From positions 1 through 39,531 of the forward strand of contig CAYNBD010000001.1 in the NCBI GenBank assembly GCA_964395755.1: 39,531 nt of DNA. The letters run 5' to 3'. Below, piece by piece: positions 2,689-27,887 of the stretch. Every line of letters starts with the position of its first letter. Within the stretch, counting starts at the first letter, position 1. The DNA is from an uncultured Gammaproteobacteria bacterium. GTDB taxonomy: Bacteria; Patescibacteriota; Patescibacteriia; Patescibacteriales; CAYMCJ01. Made by a program: the position numbers and the translations under genes. The notes below the pieces were generated by a model. That model made no database searches. It saw nothing but the letters and a program-made list of their open reading frames with translations, and had not been told where the DNA came from.

Positions 2689-5460
2689 ATGGCGAAAAAA
2701 AAGACCGTCAAGAAAGTTAAGAAAAACCCAAAAAAGAAACCAACGGTGAAAAAAACCGCCCGGATTAAGGTTGCTAAAAAAGCAATCAAGCAGGCGGTTA
2801 AACCCAAAAAGCCGGCCGGTAAAATTGTTGAACCCGCGGTTAAGAAACCGGTTAAGCCGGTTGTTAAGAAATCCAAGGCAGTTCCGGTGAAGAAAATTTT
2901 GGCCGCTGTTCCGTCCCGACCCGTCGGGGAGGAAAAGAAACCAAAGAGCCCGGAGACGGAGGACAAACAGCCGGCCATGGCGGCCGCCAGGATCGTCAAC
3001 GGCAAGGAAAAAACCGCCTTCGGCCTGGTGGAGCCGCGGGCAATCGTAGAAGAGATGAATAAGTCGTATTTGGATTACGCCATGAGCGTGATTGTCAGCC
3101 GGGCCCTGCCGGATGTGCGCGACGGCCTAAAACCGGTACACCGCCGGATTTTATACGCGATGTGGAGCATCGGCCTTAGGCCGAGCGCGAAATTCAGAAA
3201 ATCCGCCACGGTCGTGGGTGAAGTTCTGGGCAAATACCATCCGCACGGCGATACCGCGGTTTACGATTCCATGGTCAGGATGGCCCAGGATTTTTCCCTG
3301 CGCTACCCCCTGGTGCGCGGCCAGGGCAATTTCGGTTCCATGGACGGCGACGGGGCCGCGGCCATGCGTTATACCGAGGCCAAGCTGGCGTCCATTGCCG
3401 AAGAATTATTATTTGACATTGAAAAAAATACGGTTGATTTCGCGCCTAATTTTGACGGCTCGCAAAAAGAGCCCCTGGTTTTGCCTTCCCGTTTGCCCAA
3501 CTTGCTTTTAAACGGCACCATGGGCATCGCAGTCGGCATGGCCACCAACATTCCGCCCCATAATCTGGGCGAGCTGGCCGGCGCCGTTACCCATTTGATT
3601 GACAAGCCGGAAGCGAGCGTGGAGGATTTGATGCAATACGTCCAGGGACCGGATTTTCCCACCGGCGGCGTTATTTATAACCGCCAGGACATTCTCCAGG
3701 CCTATGCCACCGGCAAGGGCGGGATCGTGATGCGCGGCCGGGCGGAAATCATAGAAACTAAAAGCGGCCTGTTCCAGATAATTATTACCGAGATTCCCTA
3801 CCAGGTGAACAAGGCCAGCTTAGTGGAGAAGATTGCCGAGCTGGTCAAGAACAAAAAACTGGAAGGCATCAAGGATTTGCGGGATGAATCGGACAAGGAA
3901 GGAGTGCGCATCGTGGTGGAACTCAAGAAAGACGCTTATCCAAAAAAAATACTGAATAGTTTATATAAACATACTCAGCTGCAGGAAATTTTCCACGTCA
4001 ATTCCCTGGCCCTGGTAGACGGCATCCAGCCCAAAGTGCTGACTTTGAAAATGATGCTGGAAGAATATATCAAGCACCGGGAAGAAGTGGTGCGGCGCCG
4101 GACCCAGTTTGATCTGGACAAAGCCCGGGACCGGGCCCATATCCTGGCCGGGCTGATGATCGCCCTAAACAAGATTGACGCCGTCATTAAGACCATCAAG
4201 GCCAGCCGCGACAAAGAGGTGGCGCGCAAGAATTTAATGCGCCAGTTTAAATTAACGGACAAGCAGGCGGTCGCCATCCTGGAAATGAAGCTGGCCACTT
4301 TGGCCAATCTGGAAAGGTTAAAAATAGAAACCGAACTCAAAGACAAGAAAAAATTAATTACGGAGCTGGAAGCGATTTTGAAATCCCGCGTCCGGATCAA
4401 GGGCATCATCAAGGAAGAATTGAAAGAGGTGGTAAGAAAGCACGGGGACGAACGCCGTACCAAAATCGTGGCGCACGGAGTCAAGGACATTTCCGTCGAA
4501 GACCTGGTGCCGAACGAGGAAACCATGGTAATGATGACCCGGGACGGCTATATCAAGCGCCTGTCGCCCGATACTTTCAAGGTGCAGGGCCGGGGCGGCA
4601 AAGGCGTCATTGGTTTAACCACTAAGGAAGAGGACATGGTTGAATTTTTATTTACTACCATGGCCCATAATGACATTTTGTTTTTTACCACCCGCGGCCG
4701 GGTATTCCAGCTCAAGGCCTATGAAATTCCCCAGGCTACCCGCACGGCCAAAGGCACGCCCATCGTTAATTTTCTCCAGCTTTTGGGCGAGGAAAGAATA
4801 ACTTCCATTCTGCCTTTGGATAAAATTTCCGCCAGCAAGTTTTTGTTTTTCGCCACGGAAAGAGGGCTGGTCAAGAAAGTGAAAATCGAGGCTTTCGCCA
4901 ATGTCCGGCGCTCCGGGCTGATTGCGATTAAAATCAGGCCGGAAGACAAGCTGATTTGGGCCAAGTCGACCGGCGGTAGCGACCACATTCAGCTGATTAC
5001 CGCCGGCGGGCAGGCGATCCGTTTTCGGGAAAGCGACGTCCGGGACATGGGTCGGAACGCGGCCGGGGTAATCGGCATTCGTCTGAAAAAGGACGATATC
5101 ATGGTTGGCATGGGGGTTATTAAGAGTGATAAGGAAAAATTAAAAAAATACCAGGTGTTAACGGTGATGGAGAACGGCTTTGGCAAGCGCACCCCCCTGA
5201 ATTTGTACAAAGTTCAGGGCCGGGGCGGCTCCGGCATCAAGACCGCCCGGGTAACGGCCAAGACCGGCAAGCTGACCAACGCTTTTGTCGTTAATGCCGA
5301 GAGCATGAAAGATAAGGACCTGATCGTAATTTCGGAAAAGGGCCAGGTAATCCGCCTGCCGTTTAAGACTGTGAACCAGACCGGGCGCGACACCCAGGGT
5401 GTGCGGGTAATGCGCTTTAAAAACGAGGGCGACAAAGTGGCGTGCGTGACGTGGACATAA
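2689..5460 (+). CDS. gyrA: DNA gyrase subunit A with an N-terminal lysine/proline-rich extension of about 96 aa
   Basis: [27 protein letters not shown]; catalytic Tyr in [10 protein letters not shown]; GyrA box QGRGGKG; six beta-pinwheel blades. Residues 1-96 are AKKK/KKPVKP repeats. An alternative ATG at 2977 would give a canonical-length protein. Confidence 0.95.
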
Positions 5461-6776: not shown

Positions 6777-7742
6777 ATGAAAAAAATAATAATTTTAATT
6801 TCGGTGGTGGTAGTTTTGATTATCGGTTATAAGGTGGTTGACATAATGATGCCCCAAAACAAAATTATTTCCCCGGAAGAAGCTCGGGCCAAAGCCGAGA
6901 ATTTTATCAATGATAATTTAATGTCGCCCGGCACTTCGGCAACGGTCAAAGACGTGACTGACGAGGGCGATCTTTACAAGGTAGTGGTGTCGGTCGGCGA
7001 TCAGGACATCGATTCCTACATCAGCAAGGACGGCTCCAAGTTTTTTCCCCAGGCCCTGGAGATGCCGGCGGAAAGCCCGGAGCAATCCGCTGCCGCCCAG
7101 ACACAAGCCAGCGGCGCTAAAGTAGCGGTTCAAACCGACCGGCCGGTAGTGGAACTTTTCGTTATGAGCTACTGCCCTTACGGCACCCAGATAGAAAAAG
7201 GCATTTTGCCGGTTTTGGAAACCCTGGGTGATAAAATTGATTTTCAGTTGAAATTTTGCGACTATGCCATGCACGGCCAGCAAGAACTGAATGAAGAGCT
7301 TAACCAGTATTGTATCCAAAAGGAAGAGCCGGGCAAGCTGCTTGGATATTTAAGCGCTTTTTTGGAAGCGGGCGATTCCGGGGCGGCTTTAAGCCAGGCC
7401 GGCATTGACGCATCTAAAATCAATGTCTGCATCGCCGCCACCGACCAGAAGTTTAAAGTTACCGAGAAATATAATGACCAGACTACCTGGAGGGGCAGTT
7501 ACCCGGTATTTGACGTTGACAAAAGCGATAACGTCAAATACGGCGTCGGCGGTTCCCCTACCCTGGTTATCAACGGCCAAGAGGTCTCAAGCGGCCGGAG
7601 CCCAGCCGCCCTGTTGTCGACTATCTGTTCCGCTTTTAATGAAGCGCCGGCGGTCTGCGGGCAAAACCTTGCTACCGCTACCCCGGCTCCGGGCTTTGGT
7701 TATGATACGACCACCGGCAGCGCTTCCGGCAGCTGTAATTAA
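6777..7742 (+). CDS. Membrane-anchored thioredoxin-fold (DsbA/GILT-like) protein
   Basis: N-terminal TM MKKIIILISVVVVLIIGY. VELFVMSYCPYGTQ motif (CPYG, single Cys), later QYC and NVC. The start was moved from 6687 because 6687-6776 is the word palindrome. Confidence 0.5.
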   Translation: MKKIIILISVVVVLIIGYKVVDIMMPQNKIISPEEARAKAENFINDNLMSPGTSATVKDVTDEGDLYKVVVSVGDQDIDSYISKDGSKFFPQALEMPAESPEQSAAAQTQASGAKVAVQTDRPVVELFVMSYCPYGTQIEKGILPVLETLGDKIDFQLKFCDYAMHGQQELNEELNQYCIQKEEPGKLLGYLSAFLEAGDSGAALSQAGIDASKINVCIAATDQKFKVTEKYNDQTTWRGSYPVFDVDKSDNVKYGVGGSPTLVINGQEVSSGRSPAALLSTICSAFNEAPAVCGQNLATATPAPGFGYDTTTGSASGSCN

Positions 7743-17110: not shown

Positions 17111-17149
17111 AGTCTGTTGATTGTTTATGCTAATAACATTAGATTAGAT

Positions 17150-17719
17150 ATGATTAACAAAAAATTTATTCAAAAATTGAAAAAGGAATATGACAATTGG
17201 GAAAGCGAAAGGCGGCAGATTATCAGTTTGTCCAATCTCGTTTTGCACGGTTCCAAGCGGGTTATTTTTGCCCTGCACCGGGGCGACGTTAAGACTGCAG
17301 CCATGAAATTGGATGAAGTTGAAAAGTTGTTGTATCAATTGGAGAAAAAATTCGGTTTTATCAGGATTTTGGCAGAAGGGGCCTATCGGGCCGGGGCGGA
17401 GGAATACGTGGAAGCGAAGATGTTTTTGCGGGTGATGAAAGGAGACAAAGTTGATAAAATTAACAAGATTAAAGTTAATTTTGACGGTTATTTGGGCGGT
17501 ATTTGTGATTTAACCGGCGAGTTGGTGCGGCGGGCGGTTAATCTGGCTGCGGCCGGAAGAATAACGGAAGTGGAAAAAATAAAACAGGCCATCGGTGACA
17601 TTATGGCCGAGTTGGTTGAGTTTGATTTAACCGGCTATTTGCGCACCAAGTATGATCAAGCCAAAAGCAATTTAAAAAAAATTGAGCAGATTGATTATGA
17701 AATTAAGATAAGAAAGTAA
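17150..17719 (+). CDS. Translin-family protein
   Basis: GYLGGICDLTGELVRRAV matches the translin/TRAX signature (YLLG..DLTGEL.R). All-helical, 189 aa. I prefer ATG 17150 over TTG 17117. Confidence 0.65.
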   Translation: MINKKFIQKLKKEYDNWESERRQIISLSNLVLHGSKRVIFALHRGDVKTAAMKLDEVEKLLYQLEKKFGFIRILAEGAYRAGAEEYVEAKMFLRVMKGDKVDKINKIKVNFDGYLGGICDLTGELVRRAVNLAAAGRITEVEKIKQAIGDIMAELVEFDLTGYLRTKYDQAKSNLKKIEQIDYEIKIRK

Positions 17720-21778: not shown

Positions 21779-23356
21779 ATGTATTTTAAAGTTATCAAAA
21801 TATTTTTTATATTTTTTATTATATTATTTATTTCCGCTTGCGCTATGAAAGATAATAATTTAAAAAATGTCAGGCCGGCTTTGACGGCCGGGCAGTATTA
21901 TCCGGCCGCGCCCGCGTTGCTGGAAGAAAGAATTGCCGGTTTTTTGGACTCGGTGGCAGCAGTCGAAAATCCGGGCGCGGTGCGGGCGATAATGGCGCCT
22001 CATGCCGGTTTGGATTACAGCGGCCGGGTGGCGGCCAGCGCCTACAAACTTTTAAGCGGCCGAAAAATAAAGACGGCGGTGATAATCTGCAATTCCCATT
22101 CTTCTTATTTCCCGGGCGTGGCCATTGATGAGCATGACGGCTGGGAAACGCCTTTGGGTACGGTAGCGGTTGACCAGGAACTGGCGCGCAAATTGGCAGC
22201 CGCCAGCGCCGCGATTAATTTTAATGACGAGCCTTTTGTCGCCCCGGACCAGACCCTGGAAATTCAGCTGCCTTTCCTGCAGACCGTTTTGGCGGACGGG
22301 TTTAAAATTGTCCCCATATTTTTTGGCAATCAGGGAGATGAGAGCTATAAAGAACTGGCCCGGGCACTGAAAGAAAATTTAAGCGCCGATGATTTAGTAG
22401 TAATTTCCACCGATATGTCGCATTATCCGGCCTATGAAGATGCTAATCGGATTGACAGGCAAACCCTGGAGATTATCAAGGCGGCTGACACGAGCGCTTT
22501 AGAAAAGCATATCGCCGACACGGAGAGCCGGCATATTCCCGCCGAGCAAACCCTGTTGTGCGGGATTGACGGCGTAAAAACCGGGCTGGAATTATATAAG
22601 CTGGCCGGCTGGGGCGAGATTAAAATTTTGTCTTACGCCAATTCCGGCGATATTGCTATTGGCGACAAGGAGAGTGTTGTCGGTTATGGGGCAGTGGCGT
22701 TTTATGAGACGACAACAAACAACGAACAACAAACAACGAACAGCAAACAGACGGCAGGAACAGAAGATAGATTTGACAATTTATTAAATATGAAGCAGCA
22801 AAAAGAACTATTGGATATTGCCCGGAAGACCGTTGAGGCGTTCGTGACCACCGGCAAGATACCGGAATTTAAGGTTGAGGATGAGAGGTTAAATTTGCAG
22901 GAAGGAGCATTCGTGACTTTGCATAAAGACGGGCAGTTGCGGGGCTGTATCGGCCAGATTATGCCCGGCGATCAGCCTTTGTGGCAGGTGGTCAGGGATA
23001 TGGCCGCGGCCGCCTGCGCGGAAGATAACCGTTTTCAGCCGGTGAGCAAAGATGAGCTGGAAAAATTAACTTATGAAATCAGTGTTTTGTCCGCGCCGGA
23101 ATTGATTGCTGACTGGCAAAAAATTGAGTTAGGCAAGCACGGCGTCATTGTCCGCCAGGGGGTACATAGCGGCGTATTTTTACCTCAGGTAGCCGCGGAA
23201 ACCGGCTGGTCGCGGGAGGAATTTTTAAGCCAGCTTTGCTTTCAAAAAGCCGGCCTGGCCCCGGATTGCTATCGGGATAAAGATACGGAATTGCGAATAT
23301 TTACCGCCCAGGTGCTTGGGGAAACACACGAAAAGAACGAAGAAATACGAAAATAA
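21779..23356 (+). CDS. Fusion of a Memo-like domain (AmmeMemoRadiSam system protein B) and an AMMECR1 domain (protein A)
   Basis: N-terminal half has MAPHAGLDYSG. C-terminal half has GAFVTLHKDGQLRGCIGQ. The linker is TTTNNEQQTTNSKQTAG. A possible lipoprotein signal (ILFISAC) applies only if ATG 21779 is used; the alternative ATG 21845 removes it. Confidence 0.8.
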   Translation: MYFKVIKIFFIFFIILFISACAMKDNNLKNVRPALTAGQYYPAAPALLEERIAGFLDSVAAVENPGAVRAIMAPHAGLDYSGRVAASAYKLLSGRKIKTAVIICNSHSSYFPGVAIDEHDGWETPLGTVAVDQELARKLAAASAAINFNDEPFVAPDQTLEIQLPFLQTVLADGFKIVPIFFGNQGDESYKELARALKENLSADDLVVISTDMSHYPAYEDANRIDRQTLEIIKAADTSALEKHIADTESRHIPAEQTLLCGIDGVKTGLELYKLAGWGEIKILSYANSGDIAIGDKESVVGYGAVAFYETTTNNEQQTTNSKQTAGTEDRFDNLLNMKQQKELLDIARKTVEAFVTTGKIPEFKVEDERLNLQEGAFVTLHKDGQLRGCIGQIMPGDQPLWQVVRDMAAAACAEDNRFQPVSKDELEKLTYEISVLSAPELIADWQKIELGKHGVIVRQGVHSGVFLPQVAAETGWSREEFLSQLCFQKAGLAPDCYRDKDTELRIFTAQVLGETHEKNEEIRK

Positions 23357-23383
23357 CGAAAATACGAATATTGTATTCAGCAT

Positions 23384-23411
23384 TTGACGAAAGTTGCAGT
23401 TGCGGTAAAGT
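23384..23411 (+). promoter_or_regulatory. Candidate promoter (TTGACG-16 nt-TAAAGT)
   Basis: TTGACG at 23384-23389 and TAAAGT at 23406-23411. Confidence 0.45.
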
Positions 23412-23417
23412 TGAATA

Positions 23418-23579
23418 TATTTTAATCAAAATAATCATCAGAGAATAAGGCAAGAGTATCGTTAGCGTGGCCGCAGATTATAATCCGCCGATTAGATATA
23501 CTCCCTTATTCCTCTGTTCCCCTCCATCTACGGACGGGCTGGGGGCTAACCGTTTTTTGGTATCCCCCTTGTTATTTTT
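23418..23579 (+). ncRNA. Candidate small RNA of about 160 nt (long hairpin plus terminator)
   Basis: CAGAGAATAAGGCAAGAGTAT (23439-23459) pairs with ATACTCCCTTATTCCTCTG (23498-23516), 17 bp. GGGGG...CCCCC hairpin at 23541-23568, then TTGTTATTTTT. No ORF. A separate rny promoter lies downstream. Confidence 0.4.
23541..23579 (+). terminator. Terminator-like hairpin plus T-rich tail
   Basis: GGGGGCTAACC GTTTTTT GGTATCCCCC TTGTTATTTTT. Confidence 0.45.
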
Positions 23580-23593
23580 GCTTAAAGAGCCTC

Positions 23594-23622
23594 TTTACAA
23601 AGCCATAGGTTTGTGATAGAAT
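23594..23622 (+). promoter_or_regulatory. Extended -10 promoter for rny (TTTACA-17 nt-TGaTAGAAT)
   Basis: TTTACA at 23594-23599, TG at 23614-23615, TAGAAT at 23617-23622. It predicts a 5' UTR of about 230 nt. Confidence 0.6.
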
Positions 23623-23856
23623 AAGTTTTAGTTAAATTATTAAAGAATTCTGTTGTTAAGGGAGAGGTTGGGATAGACACAAAAATGTTTTTAATTTTAG
23701 CAAAAAATTGTGAAAATTAATAAATTTTTAGATTATTTTCTTCAAGTCCAAATAAAAACATTTTTAGGCCGGGAAATTATTAAAAATTTCTAGGTCGGGT
23801 TATTTTGGTGTGATAAAATAACTTCATTAACCACCCTAACAACAGAAGATTGATTT

Positions 23857-25371
23857 ATGGAATACGCGACATATCTTGTTCTGGCTGTGGGCGGTTTTTT
23901 TGTTGGCTACTGGATAAGGAAGAGAAAGGCTCTATCCGAGGTCGGAAGCGCTGAAGCCAAGGCGCAGAAAATTTTAGACGAGACTAAAACCAAGCAGCAG
24001 GAATTATTGCTTAAAGCCCAGGACAAGGCCCTCAAAATCATTGATGAAGCCAAAAAAGAGGAGGAAGGACGGCGGCGGGAGATAAATAATCTTCAGGCCC
24101 GGCTGGAAAAACGGGAAACCGCTTTTTCCCAAAAATTGTTGGAATTGCAGGACAAGCAGCAGCAGCTTTATGACAAGGTTAATAGAGTTGAAGAAGTCAA
24201 GGAAAAAATAAAACAGATTAAGGAAGAGCAGCTGGCCAAACTGGAAAAAATCGCCAAAATGTCCAAAGATGAAGCCCGGGAAGTTTTATTCAAAAACGTA
24301 TCCGAGAACATTAAGGAAGATTTAATGGTACGGATTAACAAGCTGGAAAAAGAAGCCAGCGAGTCGCTGGAAGAAAAAGCCCGGGATTTGCTCGCTGCCG
24401 CCATGCAGAGGCTGGTTTCGGCCTACACGCCGGAAATCACCACCACCACGGTTGATTTGCCCAGTGACGAAATGAAAGGCCGGGTCATCGGCCGGGAAGG
24501 GCGCAACATCAAAGTGATTGAGCAGTTAACCGGTACGGAAATTATCGTTGATGACACTCCCAACGTCATCACGGTTTCCGGTTTTTCCCCGATCAGGCGG
24601 CACGTGGCCAAAAGGGCCCTGGACCGTTTAATCAAAGACGGCCGGATTCAGCCCACCAAAATAGAAGCGGCCGTAGAAGACGCCCGCAAAGAACTGGCCC
24701 TGGACATTAAAAAAGCCGGGGAAGAGGCTTTGTACGAAGTCGGTTTGACCGGTTTTGATCCCAAGCTGGTGCAGATTGTCGGACGCTTGAAATATCGCTC
24801 CAGTTACGGCCAGAACGCTTTGCGCCATTCTTTGGAAGTGGCCCATCTGTCCGCTTTGTTGGCGGAAGAGCTGGGAGCGGACGTAACCGTCGCCAAGAAA
24901 GCCGGTTTACTCCATGATATCGGCAAGGCGGTTGACCATGAGGTCCAGGGCACGCATCCGGAAATCGGGCGCGATATCGCCAAAAAATTCAAACTGCCGC
25001 AGGAAATTATTGATCCGATTGAAACCCATCATGATGACAAGCCGCGCGGCCTGGTGTCCGTGATTGTCAAAGTGGCGGACGCCATTTCCGCGGCCCGGCC
25101 CGGCGCCCGGCGTGACACTTATGAGCAGTATCTGCAGCGCCTGGAAGAACTGGAAAAAATAGCCACTTCTTTTGCCGGCGTGGATAAAACCTACGCGATC
25201 CAGGCCGGCCGGGAAGTCAGGGTGTTCGTGATGCCGGAAGAGATTGACGACTTGAAAGCCCATAACCTGGCCCGTGACATTGCCAAAAAAATCGAGCAGG
25301 AATTAAAATATCCGGGCGAAATTAAAGTCAATGTTATCCGGGAAATGCGGGTGACGGAATATGCCAGATAA
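23857..25371 (+). CDS. rny: Ribonuclease Y
   Basis: N-terminal TM, long coiled coil, KH domain (GRVIGREGRNIKVIEQLTG), HD domain (LLHDIGKA, HHDD). Confidence 0.93.
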   Translation: MEYATYLVLAVGGFFVGYWIRKRKALSEVGSAEAKAQKILDETKTKQQELLLKAQDKALKIIDEAKKEEEGRRREINNLQARLEKRETAFSQKLLELQDKQQQLYDKVNRVEEVKEKIKQIKEEQLAKLEKIAKMSKDEAREVLFKNVSENIKEDLMVRINKLEKEASESLEEKARDLLAAAMQRLVSAYTPEITTTTVDLPSDEMKGRVIGREGRNIKVIEQLTGTEIIVDDTPNVITVSGFSPIRRHVAKRALDRLIKDGRIQPTKIEAAVEDARKELALDIKKAGEEALYEVGLTGFDPKLVQIVGRLKYRSSYGQNALRHSLEVAHLSALLAEELGADVTVAKKAGLLHDIGKAVDHEVQGTHPEIGRDIAKKFKLPQEIIDPIETHHDDKPRGLVSVIVKVADAISAARPGARRDTYEQYLQRLEELEKIATSFAGVDKTYAIQAGREVRVFVMPEEIDDLKAHNLARDIAKKIEQELKYPGEIKVNVIREMRVTEYAR

Positions 25372-25396
25372 AATAAAAGATACAATATCAAAAATA

Positions 25397-25430
25397 AAAA
25401 AGAGGGAGCGGTGCAAACCGTTCCCCTTTT
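25397..25430. terminator. Bidirectional terminator between convergent genes
   Basis: AAAAGAGGGAGCGG TGCAAA CCGTTCCCCTTTT. Confidence 0.7.
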
Positions 25431-25436
25431 GATTGT

Positions 25437-25919
25437 TTAATAAATTTTAAACCTGAATTCGTAAGTATCTTTGCCGATTTTTTTTGGTTTTTTCAATTCT
25501 ACCCGGAAATGTTTTAGCTCTTTAGTGTTCTTTAGATGCCAGCCTTGACAGGGACATATTATTTGAGAAGAATGTGTCGGATAGCCAATGATTACCACTT
25601 CAACCAAAGCCCGGGTTGCTATCTGTTTTCCGTATTCTAAATAATATTCCGTAGAGCCGGCGGTTGTATCCGGCATCTTCGTCTTGATAATAGATAGTCC
25701 CCAATCAATGTATTCCTGAATCAAATCCTGAATCAGTTGGAAAGTGTCCGGCTGGCGCGGATCTATCCCCGGACTAAGGCGATAAACTACCCTCACCCGG
25801 CTACCCTTTTTTGCAAATGCTTGGGAATAAGCAAAACCACAAGCTTTAGCGATACATTCCCACAAAACGTGGTCATAGGTTTCAATCGCCCGGTTAATCA
25901 TTTCCTGGGTTTTTTCCAT
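25437..25919 (-). CDS. Hypothetical protein, 160 aa, no recognisable motif
   Basis: Intact ORF with a strong GAGGAGGAG Shine-Dalgarno. It lies on the opposite strand between rny and the ymdB-like gene. Confidence 0.55.
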   Translation of the reverse strand: MEKTQEMINRAIETYDHVLWECIAKACGFAYSQAFAKKGSRVRVVYRLSPGIDPRQPDTFQLIQDLIQEYIDWGLSIIKTKMPDTTAGSTEYYLEYGKQIATRALVEVVIIGYPTHSSQIICPCQGWHLKNTKELKHFRVELKKPKKIGKDTYEFRFKIY

Positions 25920-25924
25920 GATGC

Positions 25925-26165
25925 TCCTCCTCGTTTTTAGAGGGTTTGAGCGCGACAGGTACCCTGGGGAAAATAACTTGGCCGGGGCACTCCGGCTGTT
26001 ATTTCCTTTCCCGGGGTGAACGCCGTTGCTTTACAGCCGGAAGCAAGAGAGGGTCTTCTGACAGCGGAATTCAGCCACCCGGACTTACGTCCGCCTCTAA
26101 ATTCATATCAGTTCCGTTCTTGTTCGTCTGCCCCGCCTGTCAACGGGAATTTTTTAAAGAACTTC
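25925..26165 (-). ncRNA. Candidate structured 5' leader (riboswitch-like) of the 160 aa gene
   Basis: GC-rich and non-coding. The closing helix is GACAGG/CCTGTC (26136-26141 with 25954-25959). On the minus strand there is a CGGAC-GUAA-GUCCG hairpin with a GNRA loop (26080-26093). The loop of hairpin 26026-26046 is complementary over 8 nt to 25992-25999. A CCCUCU tract lies next to the SD. Confidence 0.4.
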
Positions 26166-26172
26166 AAATTAG

Positions 26173-26199
26173 CTTATACTTTAACAATAAAAATGTCAA
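26173..26199 (-). promoter_or_regulatory. Weak candidate promoter (TTGACA-15 nt-TATAAG) for the leader
   Basis: Reverse complement of TGTCAA (26194-26199) and CTTATA (26173-26178). The 15 nt spacer is suboptimal. Confidence 0.3.
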
Positions 26200-26240
26200 A
26201 TATTTGCCTAAAAAATAAACTTATGTTAGCATAAAACTAT

Positions 26241-26297
26241 AATCCGAATGCTCCGAATATTTATAAATAAATTATTTCGGTCATTCGGAGCATTTGG
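26241..26297. repeat. Word palindrome (CCGAAT/ATTCGG words)
   Basis: AATCCGAATGCTCCGAATAT faces TATTTCGGTCATTCGGAGCATTTGG. Confidence 0.8.
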
Positions 26298-26326
26298 ATA
26301 TATTTGTAGATTTGGATTATATTTTT

Positions 26327-27127
26327 ATGAGAAATATTAAAATCATTTTCATCGGCGACATTAGCGGCCGCATCGGCCGGCAGGCCGTGGCTAAAATTTT
26401 GCCCAAAATTAAAAAGCAGTACCAGCCGGATTTGGTCATTGCGAATGCGGACAACATTGCCCATGGTTCCGGCATTACCGAAGATACTCTTAAAGAGTTA
26501 ATGGCGGTCGGGATTGATTATTTTACCAACGGCGACCATTGTTTTGATCGGGCCAAGCAACTGGAATGCTACGATAAGCTGCCGGTTATCAGACCGGCTA
26601 ATTATTCGCCGGAAGCGCCCGGCAAAGGGTATGCTGTTTTGAAAATTAGGGGGCAAAAATTTTTACTGCTTAATTTAATCGGCCGGGTGTTTATGGACAA
26701 GGACCATGAATGTCCGTTTAGGCAGGCCGGGGAAATTTTGGCTATGTTTGCAAAAGAAAATTTATCTGCTATAATAATTGATATGCATGCCGAAGCCACC
26801 TCGGAAAAAGTTTCCCTGGCTCATTATCTGGACGGACGGGTGAGCGCGGTTCTGGGCACGCATACCCATGTTATGACCGCGGACGCGAACATTACGGATC
26901 AGGGCACGGCTTACTTGACTGATGTCGGCATGACCGGAGCCGCGGATGAATGCATAGGCGTAGCTAAGGAAGGCATTATCAAGACATTTTTGAGCCAGAT
27001 CAAGTATCCGCACGTGATTCCGGAAAAAGGCCGGGCCATGCTCAACGCGGTTTTGGTGGAGATAAATCCCAGGAATGCCCGGGCAACCGTGATTAAACCG
27101 ATTATTAAATTTGTTAATATAAAATAA
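26327..27127 (+). CDS. ymdB: YmdB-like metallophosphoesterase (2',3'-cyclic-nucleotide 2'-phosphodiesterase family, TIGR00282)
   Basis: IIFIGDISGRIGR, NADNIAHGSGIT, TNGDHCFD, DMHAEATSEK, GTHTHVMTAD, TDVGMTG. I prefer ATG 26327 over TTG 26294. Confidence 0.85.
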   Translation: MRNIKIIFIGDISGRIGRQAVAKILPKIKKQYQPDLVIANADNIAHGSGITEDTLKELMAVGIDYFTNGDHCFDRAKQLECYDKLPVIRPANYSPEAPGKGYAVLKIRGQKFLLLNLIGRVFMDKDHECPFRQAGEILAMFAKENLSAIIIDMHAEATSEKVSLAHYLDGRVSAVLGTHTHVMTADANITDQGTAYLTDVGMTGAADECIGVAKEGIIKTFLSQIKYPHVIPEKGRAMLNAVLVEINPRNARATVIKPIIKFVNIK

Positions 27128-27577: not shown

Positions 27578-27578
27578 G

Positions 27579-27651
27579 TGCGCCCAGGAGGATTCGAACC
27601 CCCGACCGTTTGCTTAAGAGGCAACTGCTCTACCAGCTGAGCTATGAGCGC
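27579..27651 (-). tRNA. tRNA-Lys (anticodon CTT), 73 nt, no encoded CCA
   Basis: Hand-folded cloverleaf: acceptor GCGCTCA/TGGGCGC, D stem GCTC/GAGC, anticodon loop CTCTTAA, T arm GGGGG-TTCGAAT-CCTCC, discriminator A. Confidence 0.85.
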
Positions 27652-27657
27652 TCATTT

Positions 27658-27738
27658 AGTTATAAAGTTTAAAGTAGAAAGTTATAAAATAAATTTTAAC
27701 ACTTTTAACTTTACAACTTTATAATTTTTACTAATTAG
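27658..27738. repeat. Word palindrome (AAGTT/AACTT words) between tRNA-Met and tRNA-Lys
   Basis: AGTTATAAAGTTTAAAGTAGAAAGTTATAAAA faces TTTTAACACTTTTAACTTTACAACTTTATAA. Confidence 0.8.
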
Positions 27739-27812
27739 TAGCTGGGGTGGGGATTGAACCCACGACCTTAGCGTTATGAGTGCTACGCTCTAACCAACTG
27801 AGCTACCCAGCC
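27739..27812 (-). tRNA. tRNA with CAT anticodon (elongator Met or lysidine-type Ile2), 74 nt
   Basis: Acceptor GGCTGGG/CCCAGCT (G1-U72 wobble), D arm GCTC-AGTTGGTTA-GAGC, anticodon loop CTCATAA, T arm GTGGG-TTCAATC-CCCAC. It lacks the three G-C pairs of initiator anticodon stems. Confidence 0.8.
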
Positions 27813-27815
27813 ATG

Positions 27816-27887
27816 TGCTCCCGTCAGGACTCGAACCCAAAATCCTTGGTCCGAAGCCAAGTGTGATATCCATTTCACCACGGGAGC
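27816..27887 (-). tRNA. tRNA-Arg (anticodon TCG), 72 nt
   Basis: Acceptor GCTCCCG/CGGGAGC, D arm GTGA-AATGGATA-TCAC, anticodon stem CTTGG/CCAAG with loop CTTCGGA, T loop TTCGAGT. Confidence 0.85.

Follow-up and report, generated by a model that had tools for sequence, protein, structure and literature searches.

The 39,531-nucleotide (nt) stretch analyzed here (the window; contig CAYNBD010000001.1 of assembly GCA_964395755.1) comes from a genome of the Patescibacteria, or candidate phyla radiation (CPR). Between the RNase Y gene, rny, and a ymdB-like phosphodiesterase gene, it carries a minus-strand gene for a 160-amino-acid (160-aa) protein at 25437–25919, preceded by a structured 5′ leader RNA at 25920–26152. 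We consider it likely that the two form a self-contained, translationally switched trans-editing module in this Falkowbacteria-like Patescibacteria genome. The evidence that bears on this directly is the anatomy of the module, the fold and motifs of the protein, the conservation and covariation of the RNA, and the linkage of RNA and gene within the available sequences. Structured regulatory leaders and free-standing editing domains are known kinds of element; the RNA class appears to be new. In order of transcription, the unit would run from a sigma-70-type promoter at about 26171–26199 through the leader (26152–25920) and the gene (25919–25437) to a terminator that it has in common with rny.

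The sequence-only reading placed the 160-aa gene correctly and described it as an orphan with no recognizable domain; the structural and family searches overturn both parts of that description. An AlphaFold2 model of the protein (predicted local distance difference test 78.8, predicted template modeling score 0.77) matches over its full length the editing domain of alanyl-tRNA synthetase (AlaRS; 2zze) and the free-standing editing protein AlaX-S (1v7o and 1wnu) in Foldseek, with E values of about 1e-7 and TM-scores of 0.66–0.74. The matches to 2zze, 1v7o, 1wnu, 2e1b and 1tje all have a Foldseek probability of 1.0, with E from 1e-7 to 2e-4 and TMq of 0.6–0.72, and the fold matches take in AlaRS editing domains, AlaX-S of Pyrococcus horikoshii, AlaX-M, the N2 domain of threonyl-tRNA synthetase (ThrRS) and the mitoribosomal protein mL39. 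At the level of sequence, the Pfam profile tRNA_SAD (PF07973) gives the window protein 21.1 bits (E = 3e-4), below its curated 24-bit cut-off, and it matches 13 of 27 family members at E < 0.1, with a best value of 3.9e-6. The NCBIfam model AlaXM scores 12.2 bits against a cut-off of 300. Searches of the Protein Data Bank (PDB) with the single sequence and with two profiles returned no AlaX and chance matches only, so the kinship to AlaX is visible only through the fold and short motifs.

Those motifs are two zinc-site signatures, HxxxH and CxGxH, which define the superfamily and of which HxxxH has been called universally conserved (PMC12003907). The CxGxH signature is present in the window protein as C124-Q-G-W-H128, with C124 and H128 conserved to 90% or more in the alignment of 27 members. 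The HxxxH signature is altered to H17-V-L-W-E21: His17 is invariant in the family, but position 21 is glutamate in most members and histidine only in three divergent ones (P0025, P0029 and P0032). Further family features are an additional cysteine (CPC) and a DH..W motif that never varies. Because HxxxE replaces HxxxH, we regard the protein as a variant rather than a canonical member, and on the strength of its model it is best described as a divergent AlaX-S-type protein of the AlaX and AlaRS-ThrRS editing-domain superfamily. Like AlaX-S (AlaXp type I, P. horikoshii PH0574; 1v7o, 1wnu and 1wxo), it is free-standing, about 155–160 aa long and built on the same full-length fold (TM ≈ 0.7), and it has in common with the AlaX-S, AlaRS and ThrRS-N2 editing domains both CxGxH and the first histidine of the HxxxH helix. 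It differs from AlaX-S in a sequence identity of just 14–17%, a Pfam score under the cut-off, and the family's predominant HxxxE, CPC and DH..W features. By analogy, the protein would most likely hydrolyze mis-acylated tRNA, as AlaX does Ser- or Gly-tRNA(Ala).

The family is small. An exhaustive search of 1.8 billion cluster representatives with a hidden Markov model profile found only 32 relatives, forming about 30 clusters at 50% identity, and a word-index homology search found only 2–5. Members so far come from groundwater and sediment metagenomes and metagenome-assembled genomes (MAGs) only, and the taxonomic assignment made is that of the window lineage, to the Patescibacteria.

In every member with retrievable upstream sequence, a non-coding stretch of 220–320 nt lies ahead of the gene. 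At all 15 distinct loci checked that have upstream sequence, and in near-identical copies, it contains a homologous leader, which in each case immediately precedes the family gene on the same strand. The leader is 220–240 nt long across loci and about 235 nt in the window. The surroundings of the leader–gene unit are otherwise unrelated: murD/murC with a helix-turn-helix (HTH) gene at one locus, a CCA-adding enzyme, 2-hydroxyacid dehydrogenase and rluD at another, and elsewhere secG with dsbA, dsbA with uvrA, or a Metallophos gene. No consistent clue to a ligand emerged from the neighboring genes across these loci. In the window, the leader accounts for a GC-rich stretch at about 25940–26150 (GC 0.53–0.59, against 0.23–0.30 in the flanking spacer; minus-strand fold z = −3.0), which had been read, rightly, as a structured leader of the gene.

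Homology of the leaders was established with covariance models (CMs). A first model, built from six leaders of other loci with the rest held out, recovered the held-out leaders of loci L102 (E = 1.7e-13), L094 (3.8e-13), L107 (2.5e-11) and L098 (3e-7), as well as that of the window (5e-4). A second, built from nine sequences and excluding the window, matches 25917–26152 of the minus strand over its full length with 45.7 bits and E = 1e-10, and also finds L098, L110, L111 and L113. The same model found nothing at E < 0.1 in 744 kb of control viral loci, and a degenerate DNA pattern derived from the leader gave more than 120 chance matches in viral contigs, none of them confirmed by the CM. Against Rfam 15 (4227 models), the window yielded nothing at gathering thresholds, the gap only chance-level matches at E ≤ 10, the leader of L009 no match at E ≤ 1, and seven other loci none at all. 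A literature search likewise found no description of such a leader RNA, and by these comparisons it appears to be an undescribed RNA class. We rejected readings of the GC-rich region as transfer-messenger RNA (tmRNA), tRNA, 6S RNA or signal recognition particle (SRP) RNA: they lack CM matches, the only tRNAs that ARAGORN predicts in the window are the three at 27578–27887, and the conserved bulge of the leader pairs in cis.

From its 5′ end, the leader forms a hairpin (P1), a long arm composed of the 10-bp P2 with P3 and P4, and a second long hairpin, the three-tier P5; a pseudoknot joins P1 to P5, and a hairpin over the Shine-Dalgarno sequence (P6) follows. P1 (26131–26148, UCCCG/CGGGG) is 90.6% paired in the 15-sequence CM alignment, A8 (columns 5–11 × 20–26), with compensatory change in five of its seven pairs. 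Its loop, UUGACAGG (26136–26143), provides the 5′ strand of the pseudoknot. The 3′ strand, CCUGUC at 25954–25959, forms a 6-nt bulge in P5 and reaches back about 180 nt to pair with the P1 loop, so that in the window GACAGG (26141–26136) faces CCUGUC (25959–25954). RNAalifold first proposed this pairing on a plain MAFFT alignment of 11 leaders. In MAFFT alignment A4 (columns 15–20 × 219–224) it is 97% paired and all six pairs change on both sides; read directly from the sequences, it comprises 6–8 contiguous bp in 13 of 14 leaders, in nine different sequences. Conserved internal features include an AGG...GUGU internal loop in P4 and an nGUGnC apical loop in P5, similar GUG-containing loops (nGUGnC) being present on the P4 and P5 hairpins of A8.

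Column-wise helix discovery on the first MAFFT alignment missed P1–P4 owing to register shifts, a problem solved by iterated CMs. In the resulting alignment A8, the 59 pairs of the model are 90.6% paired, against 39–46% when slid, with compensatory change in 49 of 59 and none of 500 shuffles reaching these values, although the pair counts are inflated by the fitting of this alignment to the structure. The structure-blind MAFFT alignment is therefore the cleaner test: over the 19 pairs of the pseudoknot, lower P5 and P6, 88.9% are paired against 35–44% when slid, 16 of 19 show compensatory change, and 0 of 500 shuffles reach the observed values. The leader thus has the covarying secondary and tertiary structure in a 5′ untranslated region (UTR) that marks a structured cis-regulatory leader. 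A minimal leader at L113 (324–470) carries a short hairpin in place of P3/P4 and keeps P1, the pseudoknot, P2, P5 and P6, which identifies the latter set as the core; its P6 reads GCAC/GUGC where others have GCUC/GAGC. Between L001 (3874–4096) and L009 (142–363), the leaders are 83% identical and the proteins encoded behind them only 55%. The RNA of this pair thus evolves more slowly than the coding sequence, a sign that the leader is under strong selection.

The strand of the RNA follows from the same data. The GC-rich region might instead be an independent small RNA or a plus-strand element, such as a plus-strand transcript ending at about 26131–26155 or a leader of ymdB. The plus strand does fold (z = −2.5), and a U-run follows the P1 hairpin on that strand, a hairpin at about 26131–26148 that the sequence-only reading had counted as a plus-strand part of the structure. 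The CM matches, however, fall on the gene strand only, end at the AUG of the gene and lie directly upstream of homologous genes at every locus. G·U pairs in the covarying P1, P2 and pseudoknot would become A·C on the other strand, and promoter-like hexamers stand just upstream on the minus strand. A plus-strand element is therefore highly improbable, and we discarded the interpretation of the 26131–26155 hairpin as a plus-strand small RNA or terminator: it belongs to the minus-strand leader, as its covarying helix P1.

The 3′ part of the leader has the layout of a translational switch. Directly 3′ of the pseudoknot strand lies a conserved AYGCUC (GCGCUC in the window, 25953–25948) with two possible partners. 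Pairing with the upstream GGCRU (26024–26020) closes the base of P5; pairing with a downstream GAGCRU just ahead of the start codon forms P6. In the window, the proposed anti-sequestor is GGCGU (26020–26024, minus strand), which pairs with GCGCU at 25949–25953, and P6, the Shine-Dalgarno-sequestering hairpin (GCGCUC...GAGGAGGAGCA; 25922–25953, minus strand), draws its 5′ strand from the same segment. P6 encloses the GGAGG that serves as Shine-Dalgarno sequence at about 25925–25931, and it is present in the minimum-free-energy fold of the window leader. Both helices are conserved in A8. The P5 base (columns 168–172 × 275–279) is 96% paired, with column 171 × 276 occupied by GC in ten leaders and AU in five and broken in none; P6 (columns 276–280 × 303–307) is 91.8% paired, with three of its five pairs compensatory and column 276 × 307 occupied by CG in six and UA in five, with four mismatches. 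Because the two helices are mutually exclusive and column 276 covaries with both partners, the arrangement carries the signature of a sequestor and an anti-sequestor. Constrained folds restricted to nested pairs, with the pseudoknot ignored, favor the P6 state by 1–9 kcal/mol in 14 of 15 leaders.

These exclusive pairings around the ribosome-binding site (RBS) are those of an expression platform, and from them we infer a translational switch that hides or frees the site. Since no U-run follows P6, control would be translational. In the default fold, P6 would block translation initiation; an effector that stabilizes the pseudoknotted core would deprive P6 of its 5′ strand, and the gene would then be translated. 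The 6–8-bp pseudoknot together with a bound effector could tip the balance away from P6. The pseudoknotted state would accordingly be the ON state, which is the least secure step of the argument.

Three kinds of effector come into question: a mischarging-related small molecule, a tRNA, and the protein that the gene encodes. We tentatively put forward the first as one possible reading: the leader would be a new riboswitch class, in which a pseudoknotted aptamer of about 190 nt binds a small molecule that signals a threat of mischarging and turns on translation of the AlaX-like protein. Candidate ligands are a non-cognate or non-proteinogenic amino acid, or its breakdown product. A core of this size and complexity would suit a small-molecule riboswitch, which would have a precedent in CtdA, a standalone canavanyl-tRNA(Arg) deacylase of the B3/B4 fold that is controlled by guanidine-I and guanidine-IV riboswitches (PMC10018355). 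In both systems, expression of a free-standing aminoacyl-tRNA editing protein comes under a structured 5′ leader, and the proposed logic, proofreading induced when mischarging threatens, is the same. They differ in protein fold, and the RNAs of CtdA belong to known riboswitch classes with a known ligand and control other genes too, whereas the leader described here is of a new class and is seen only with the AlaX-like family.

That exclusive association bears on a second reading, in which the leader is an autoregulatory operator: the AlaX-like protein would bind its own leader, perhaps at the two nGUGnC-loop hairpins in P4 and P5 or at a tRNA-like surface, shift the balance between the P5 base and P6, and feed back on its own translation, a behavior known from thrS of E. 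coli and from the leaders of ribosomal proteins. The anatomy would be the same and only the effector would differ. Association with a single protein family is more typical of autoregulatory protein-binding leaders; metabolite riboswitches usually control several types of gene. Autoregulation would account as readily as a riboswitch for the one-to-one association of RNA and protein family across unrelated contexts and for the two similar GUG loops, and the fold of the protein is of a tRNA-binding type. Set against this, A8 contains no convincing tRNA mimic: an NCCA-like tail after P2 and an acceptor-like G·U were sought in the alignment, and neither is conserved, so that we dropped mimicry of the tRNA acceptor as a candidate. 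In addition, a multi-helix core of about 190 nt with a long-range pseudoknot exceeds most protein-binding operators. We regard autoregulation as conceivable but doubtful.

Sensing of a charged, uncharged or mischarged tRNA by a T-box-like riboregulator of new architecture seems unlikely. The controlled gene is predicted to act on aminoacyl-tRNA from its fold and its PF07973 matches. Translational T-boxes are leaders of similar length in which a bulged helix competes with a sequestor helix, and in both respects the leader resembles them. As with the Escherichia coli thrS operator and T-boxes, it is a cis-acting leader of a gene for tRNA charging or fidelity with competing helices around the RBS, and, as with thrS, it is specific to one protein. 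The bulge that would have to accept the tRNA 3′ end, however, pairs in cis and with covariation to the P1 loop. A8 has no conserved specifier-like triplet or UGGN bulge, and neither the Rfam T-box model (RF00230) nor any other matched in the related loci searched at E ≤ 1 or in the gap of the window at E ≤ 10. The leader shows neither sequence nor CM similarity to the thrS operator or T-boxes and has no anticodon-arm mimic, specifier loop or T-box bulge, its architecture being dominated instead by a long-range intramolecular pseudoknot. A T-box-like mechanism is thus disfavored by the use of the conserved bulge in cis and by the lack of T-box features and CM matches.

Several points weigh against the picture of a switched editing module under small-molecule control. 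HxxxE in place of HxxxH and the sub-cut-off Pfam score mean that deacylase activity is not assured. The switch and its direction were read from sequence alone, and of the four mismatches at the covarying position of P6, one, C·A, is in the window itself. The leader of L108 is an outlier with a poor pseudoknot, and the structure-blind test spans just 19 pairs. The exclusive linkage of leader and gene rests on loci found through the protein, and the tie to a single protein family sits less easily with a metabolite riboswitch.

The module occupies a gap that is normally short. The genes rny (23857–25371, plus strand; Pfam RNase_Y_N at 8e-32, KH and HD) and ymdB (26327–27127, plus strand; PF13277 YmdB at 3e-91) have the same orientation and are separated by 955 nt (25372–26326), in keeping with the earlier estimate of about 950 nt. 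RNase Y comparison places the source genome near Candidatus Falkowbacteria: the window enzyme is 85% identical to its closest relative, from a Patescibacteria-group MAG, and 73–80% identical to those of many Falkowbacteria MAGs. We compared 80 related loci around RNase Y homologs, taking one genome per species. In 28 of them ymdB lies downstream of rny in the same orientation, with gaps of 9–301 nt in 24 and of 55 nt in the closest relative, L010, and the pair is present in 11 of the 15 closest relatives. The supposition that rny and ymdB are a conserved adjacent pair therefore stands for this lineage. In most of the remaining loci, rny is followed directly by a gene for HU, the gene that follows ymdB in the window. 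The pair, its order and its orientation are those of the Bacillus subtilis rny (ymdA)-ymdB operon, and the 9–55 nt that separate the genes in the closest relatives fit co-transcription. The window and L098 differ from that operon in that a terminator and a divergent promoter region split the pair, and in the window ymdB has a long 5′ UTR hairpin of its own.

None of the 80 loci encodes a homolog of the 160-aa protein, and CM searches of them for the leader gave only weak, AT-rich and partial matches at L020 and L061. On inspection in the alignment, the L020 match proved spurious. The L061 match (6979–7123, minus strand; 23.8 bits, E = 6e-4) is in a Falkowbacteria MAG that has no AlaX-like gene, a short distance downstream of HU; it is probably a chance match or a degenerate remnant, and we set it aside provisionally. 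A 1-kb contig from another metagenome, L090, holds a 99% identical copy of the module. The module recurs in a second lineage, L098–L101, where site and orientation are the same and the gene again runs opposite to rny and ymdB. RNase Y of that lineage is 82% identical to that of the window, its YmdB 68% and its inserted protein (P0015) 55%. A rough tree of RNase Y puts the window together with L010 and L015, and L098 together with L023; one small clade contains them all. The module was therefore either present in the ancestor of this clade and lost several times, or exchanged among its members. The proposal of an insertion that forms an accessory module is borne out by the absence from the 80 relatives; the insert is not unique to this genome. 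We take it to be an accessory gene and RNA module within a conserved pair. Between the promoter and the leader, L098 also has a 65-aa open reading frame (ORF; 4542–4739, plus strand) with two CxxC pairs of zinc-ribbon-like appearance and a good RBS. It is not found in the window and had no match in PHROGs. The gene upstream of rny in L098 is clpP, so that upstream synteny differs between the two module-bearing lineages.

The spacer holds other DNA in other relatives. Four have rny-ymdB gaps of 500–850 nt with unrelated small ORFs or GC-rich palindromic DNA. The spacer ORFs of three relatives, of 122 aa (minus strand), 230 aa (plus) and 124 aa (plus), are unrelated, and the spacers of others have GC-rich palindromic or repeat-bearing non-coding inserts. 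Spacer inserts were noted at L068 (4998–5846), L078 (6516–7278), L086 (6507–7005), L056 (3110–3858), L016 (5479–5778) and L018 (6516–6710). Since the larger gaps carry unrelated ORFs or palindromic DNA, the spacer is a variable spot and a recurrent landing site for accessory DNA in this lineage. This variability, together with the patchy distribution of the module, might suggest DNA that is selfish or has no function: an orphan ORF in decay, the remnant of a mobile element, or phage or defense cargo that plays no part in translation quality control. The ORF is intact, however, its catalytic-type motifs are conserved across about 30 clusters, and the leader is under strong purifying and compensatory selection. 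We found no terminal repeats, mobile-element signatures or transposase genes around the insert, and searches of PADLOC and PHROGs gave no match for the module protein. Decay or selfishness of the insert would be hard to reconcile with these observations, and we consider it very unlikely.

The gap also carries signals for transcription in both directions. As the sequence-only reading had noted, the gap contains a bidirectional intrinsic terminator, a hairpin at 25404–25425 that serves rny on the plus strand and the AlaX-like gene on the minus strand (terminator scan: 9 bp, 6 of them GC, with a T-tail). A T-run follows it on the plus strand, and an A-run ahead of the hairpin gives a U-run on the minus strand, where the fold (−17.4 kcal/mol, z = −4.3) is followed by UCUUUUUUAUUUUU. 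At the other end of the gap, an AT-rich stretch (26153–26326) contains two predicted back-to-back promoters and a ymdB hairpin of about 100 nt. The predicted module promoter (26171–26199, minus strand) consists of TTGACA (26199–26194), 17 nt, and TAAGCT (26176–26171), and a promoter-like TTGAC[ACT]-17-TAnnnT site ending 6–26 nt upstream of the leader occurs at seven loci, the window among them. The predicted ymdB promoter (26204–26232, plus strand) consists of TTGCCT, 17 nt, and TAGCAT, both promoters being readings of the sequence. Because the terminator and the divergent promoter region separate ymdB from rny in the window and in L098, ymdB must use a promoter of its own. The motif CTTATGTTAGCATA upstream of ymdB (26217–26233 in the window) also occurs in L056 and L017, and as its reverse complement in L098 (4431–4447). 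It looks like the extended −10 element (TGT-TAGCAT) of a ymdB-specific promoter, kept even where ymdB adjoins rny.

The word palindrome noticed earlier is real (26242–26258 and 26283–26299, 17 nt, 94% complementary) and is contained in a long imperfect hairpin in the ymdB 5′ UTR (26230–26329, plus strand; −29.5 kcal/mol, z = −4.4), with the ymdB AUG in its 3′ arm. In L098, the ymdB UTR is likewise palindromic with a different sequence. Once ymdB is no longer coupled to rny, this hairpin may give it a control of its own, over translation or processing.

Farther upstream in the window, rny is preceded by an unusually long, 500-nt spacer (23357–23856) with a GC-richer patch at about 23460–23560, for which Rfam gave no match better than E = 0.88; it may hold an rny leader or a small RNA. 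The gene before it (21779–23356, plus strand) encodes a Memo-like (AmmeMemoRadiSam B) domain fused to an AMMECR1 domain, with a lipoprotein-like signal at the N terminus. The 200-aa product of a gene at 17117–17719 (plus strand) has a match to Translin (PF01997, E = 1.9e-21), a family found mainly in eukaryotes and archaea and so perhaps unusual in a Patescibacteria genome.

Regulated, free-standing tRNA proofreading has barely been explored, and the only precedent that we found is CtdA under guanidine riboswitches. The conserved rny-ymdB operon, for its part, can evidently be split and rewired, and in this lineage its spacer repeatedly takes up accessory genes. In the present case, a large, conserved, pseudoknotted RNA that has no family in RNA databases accompanies a rare protein of the AlaX type whose metal-site motif is altered. 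The RNA is well defined by 15 diverse examples, a structure model, and a pseudoknot and switch helices that can be tested. If its effector is the AlaX-like protein or a tRNA, the leader would provide a new case of feedback through RNA mimicry in translation fidelity. A metabolite as effector would make the leader a new riboswitch class and would indicate that some mischarging stress is of importance to Patescibacteria; in that case, these ultra-small bacteria would possess a ligand-inducible form of translation quality control, governed by an RNA sensor unrelated to the known classes.

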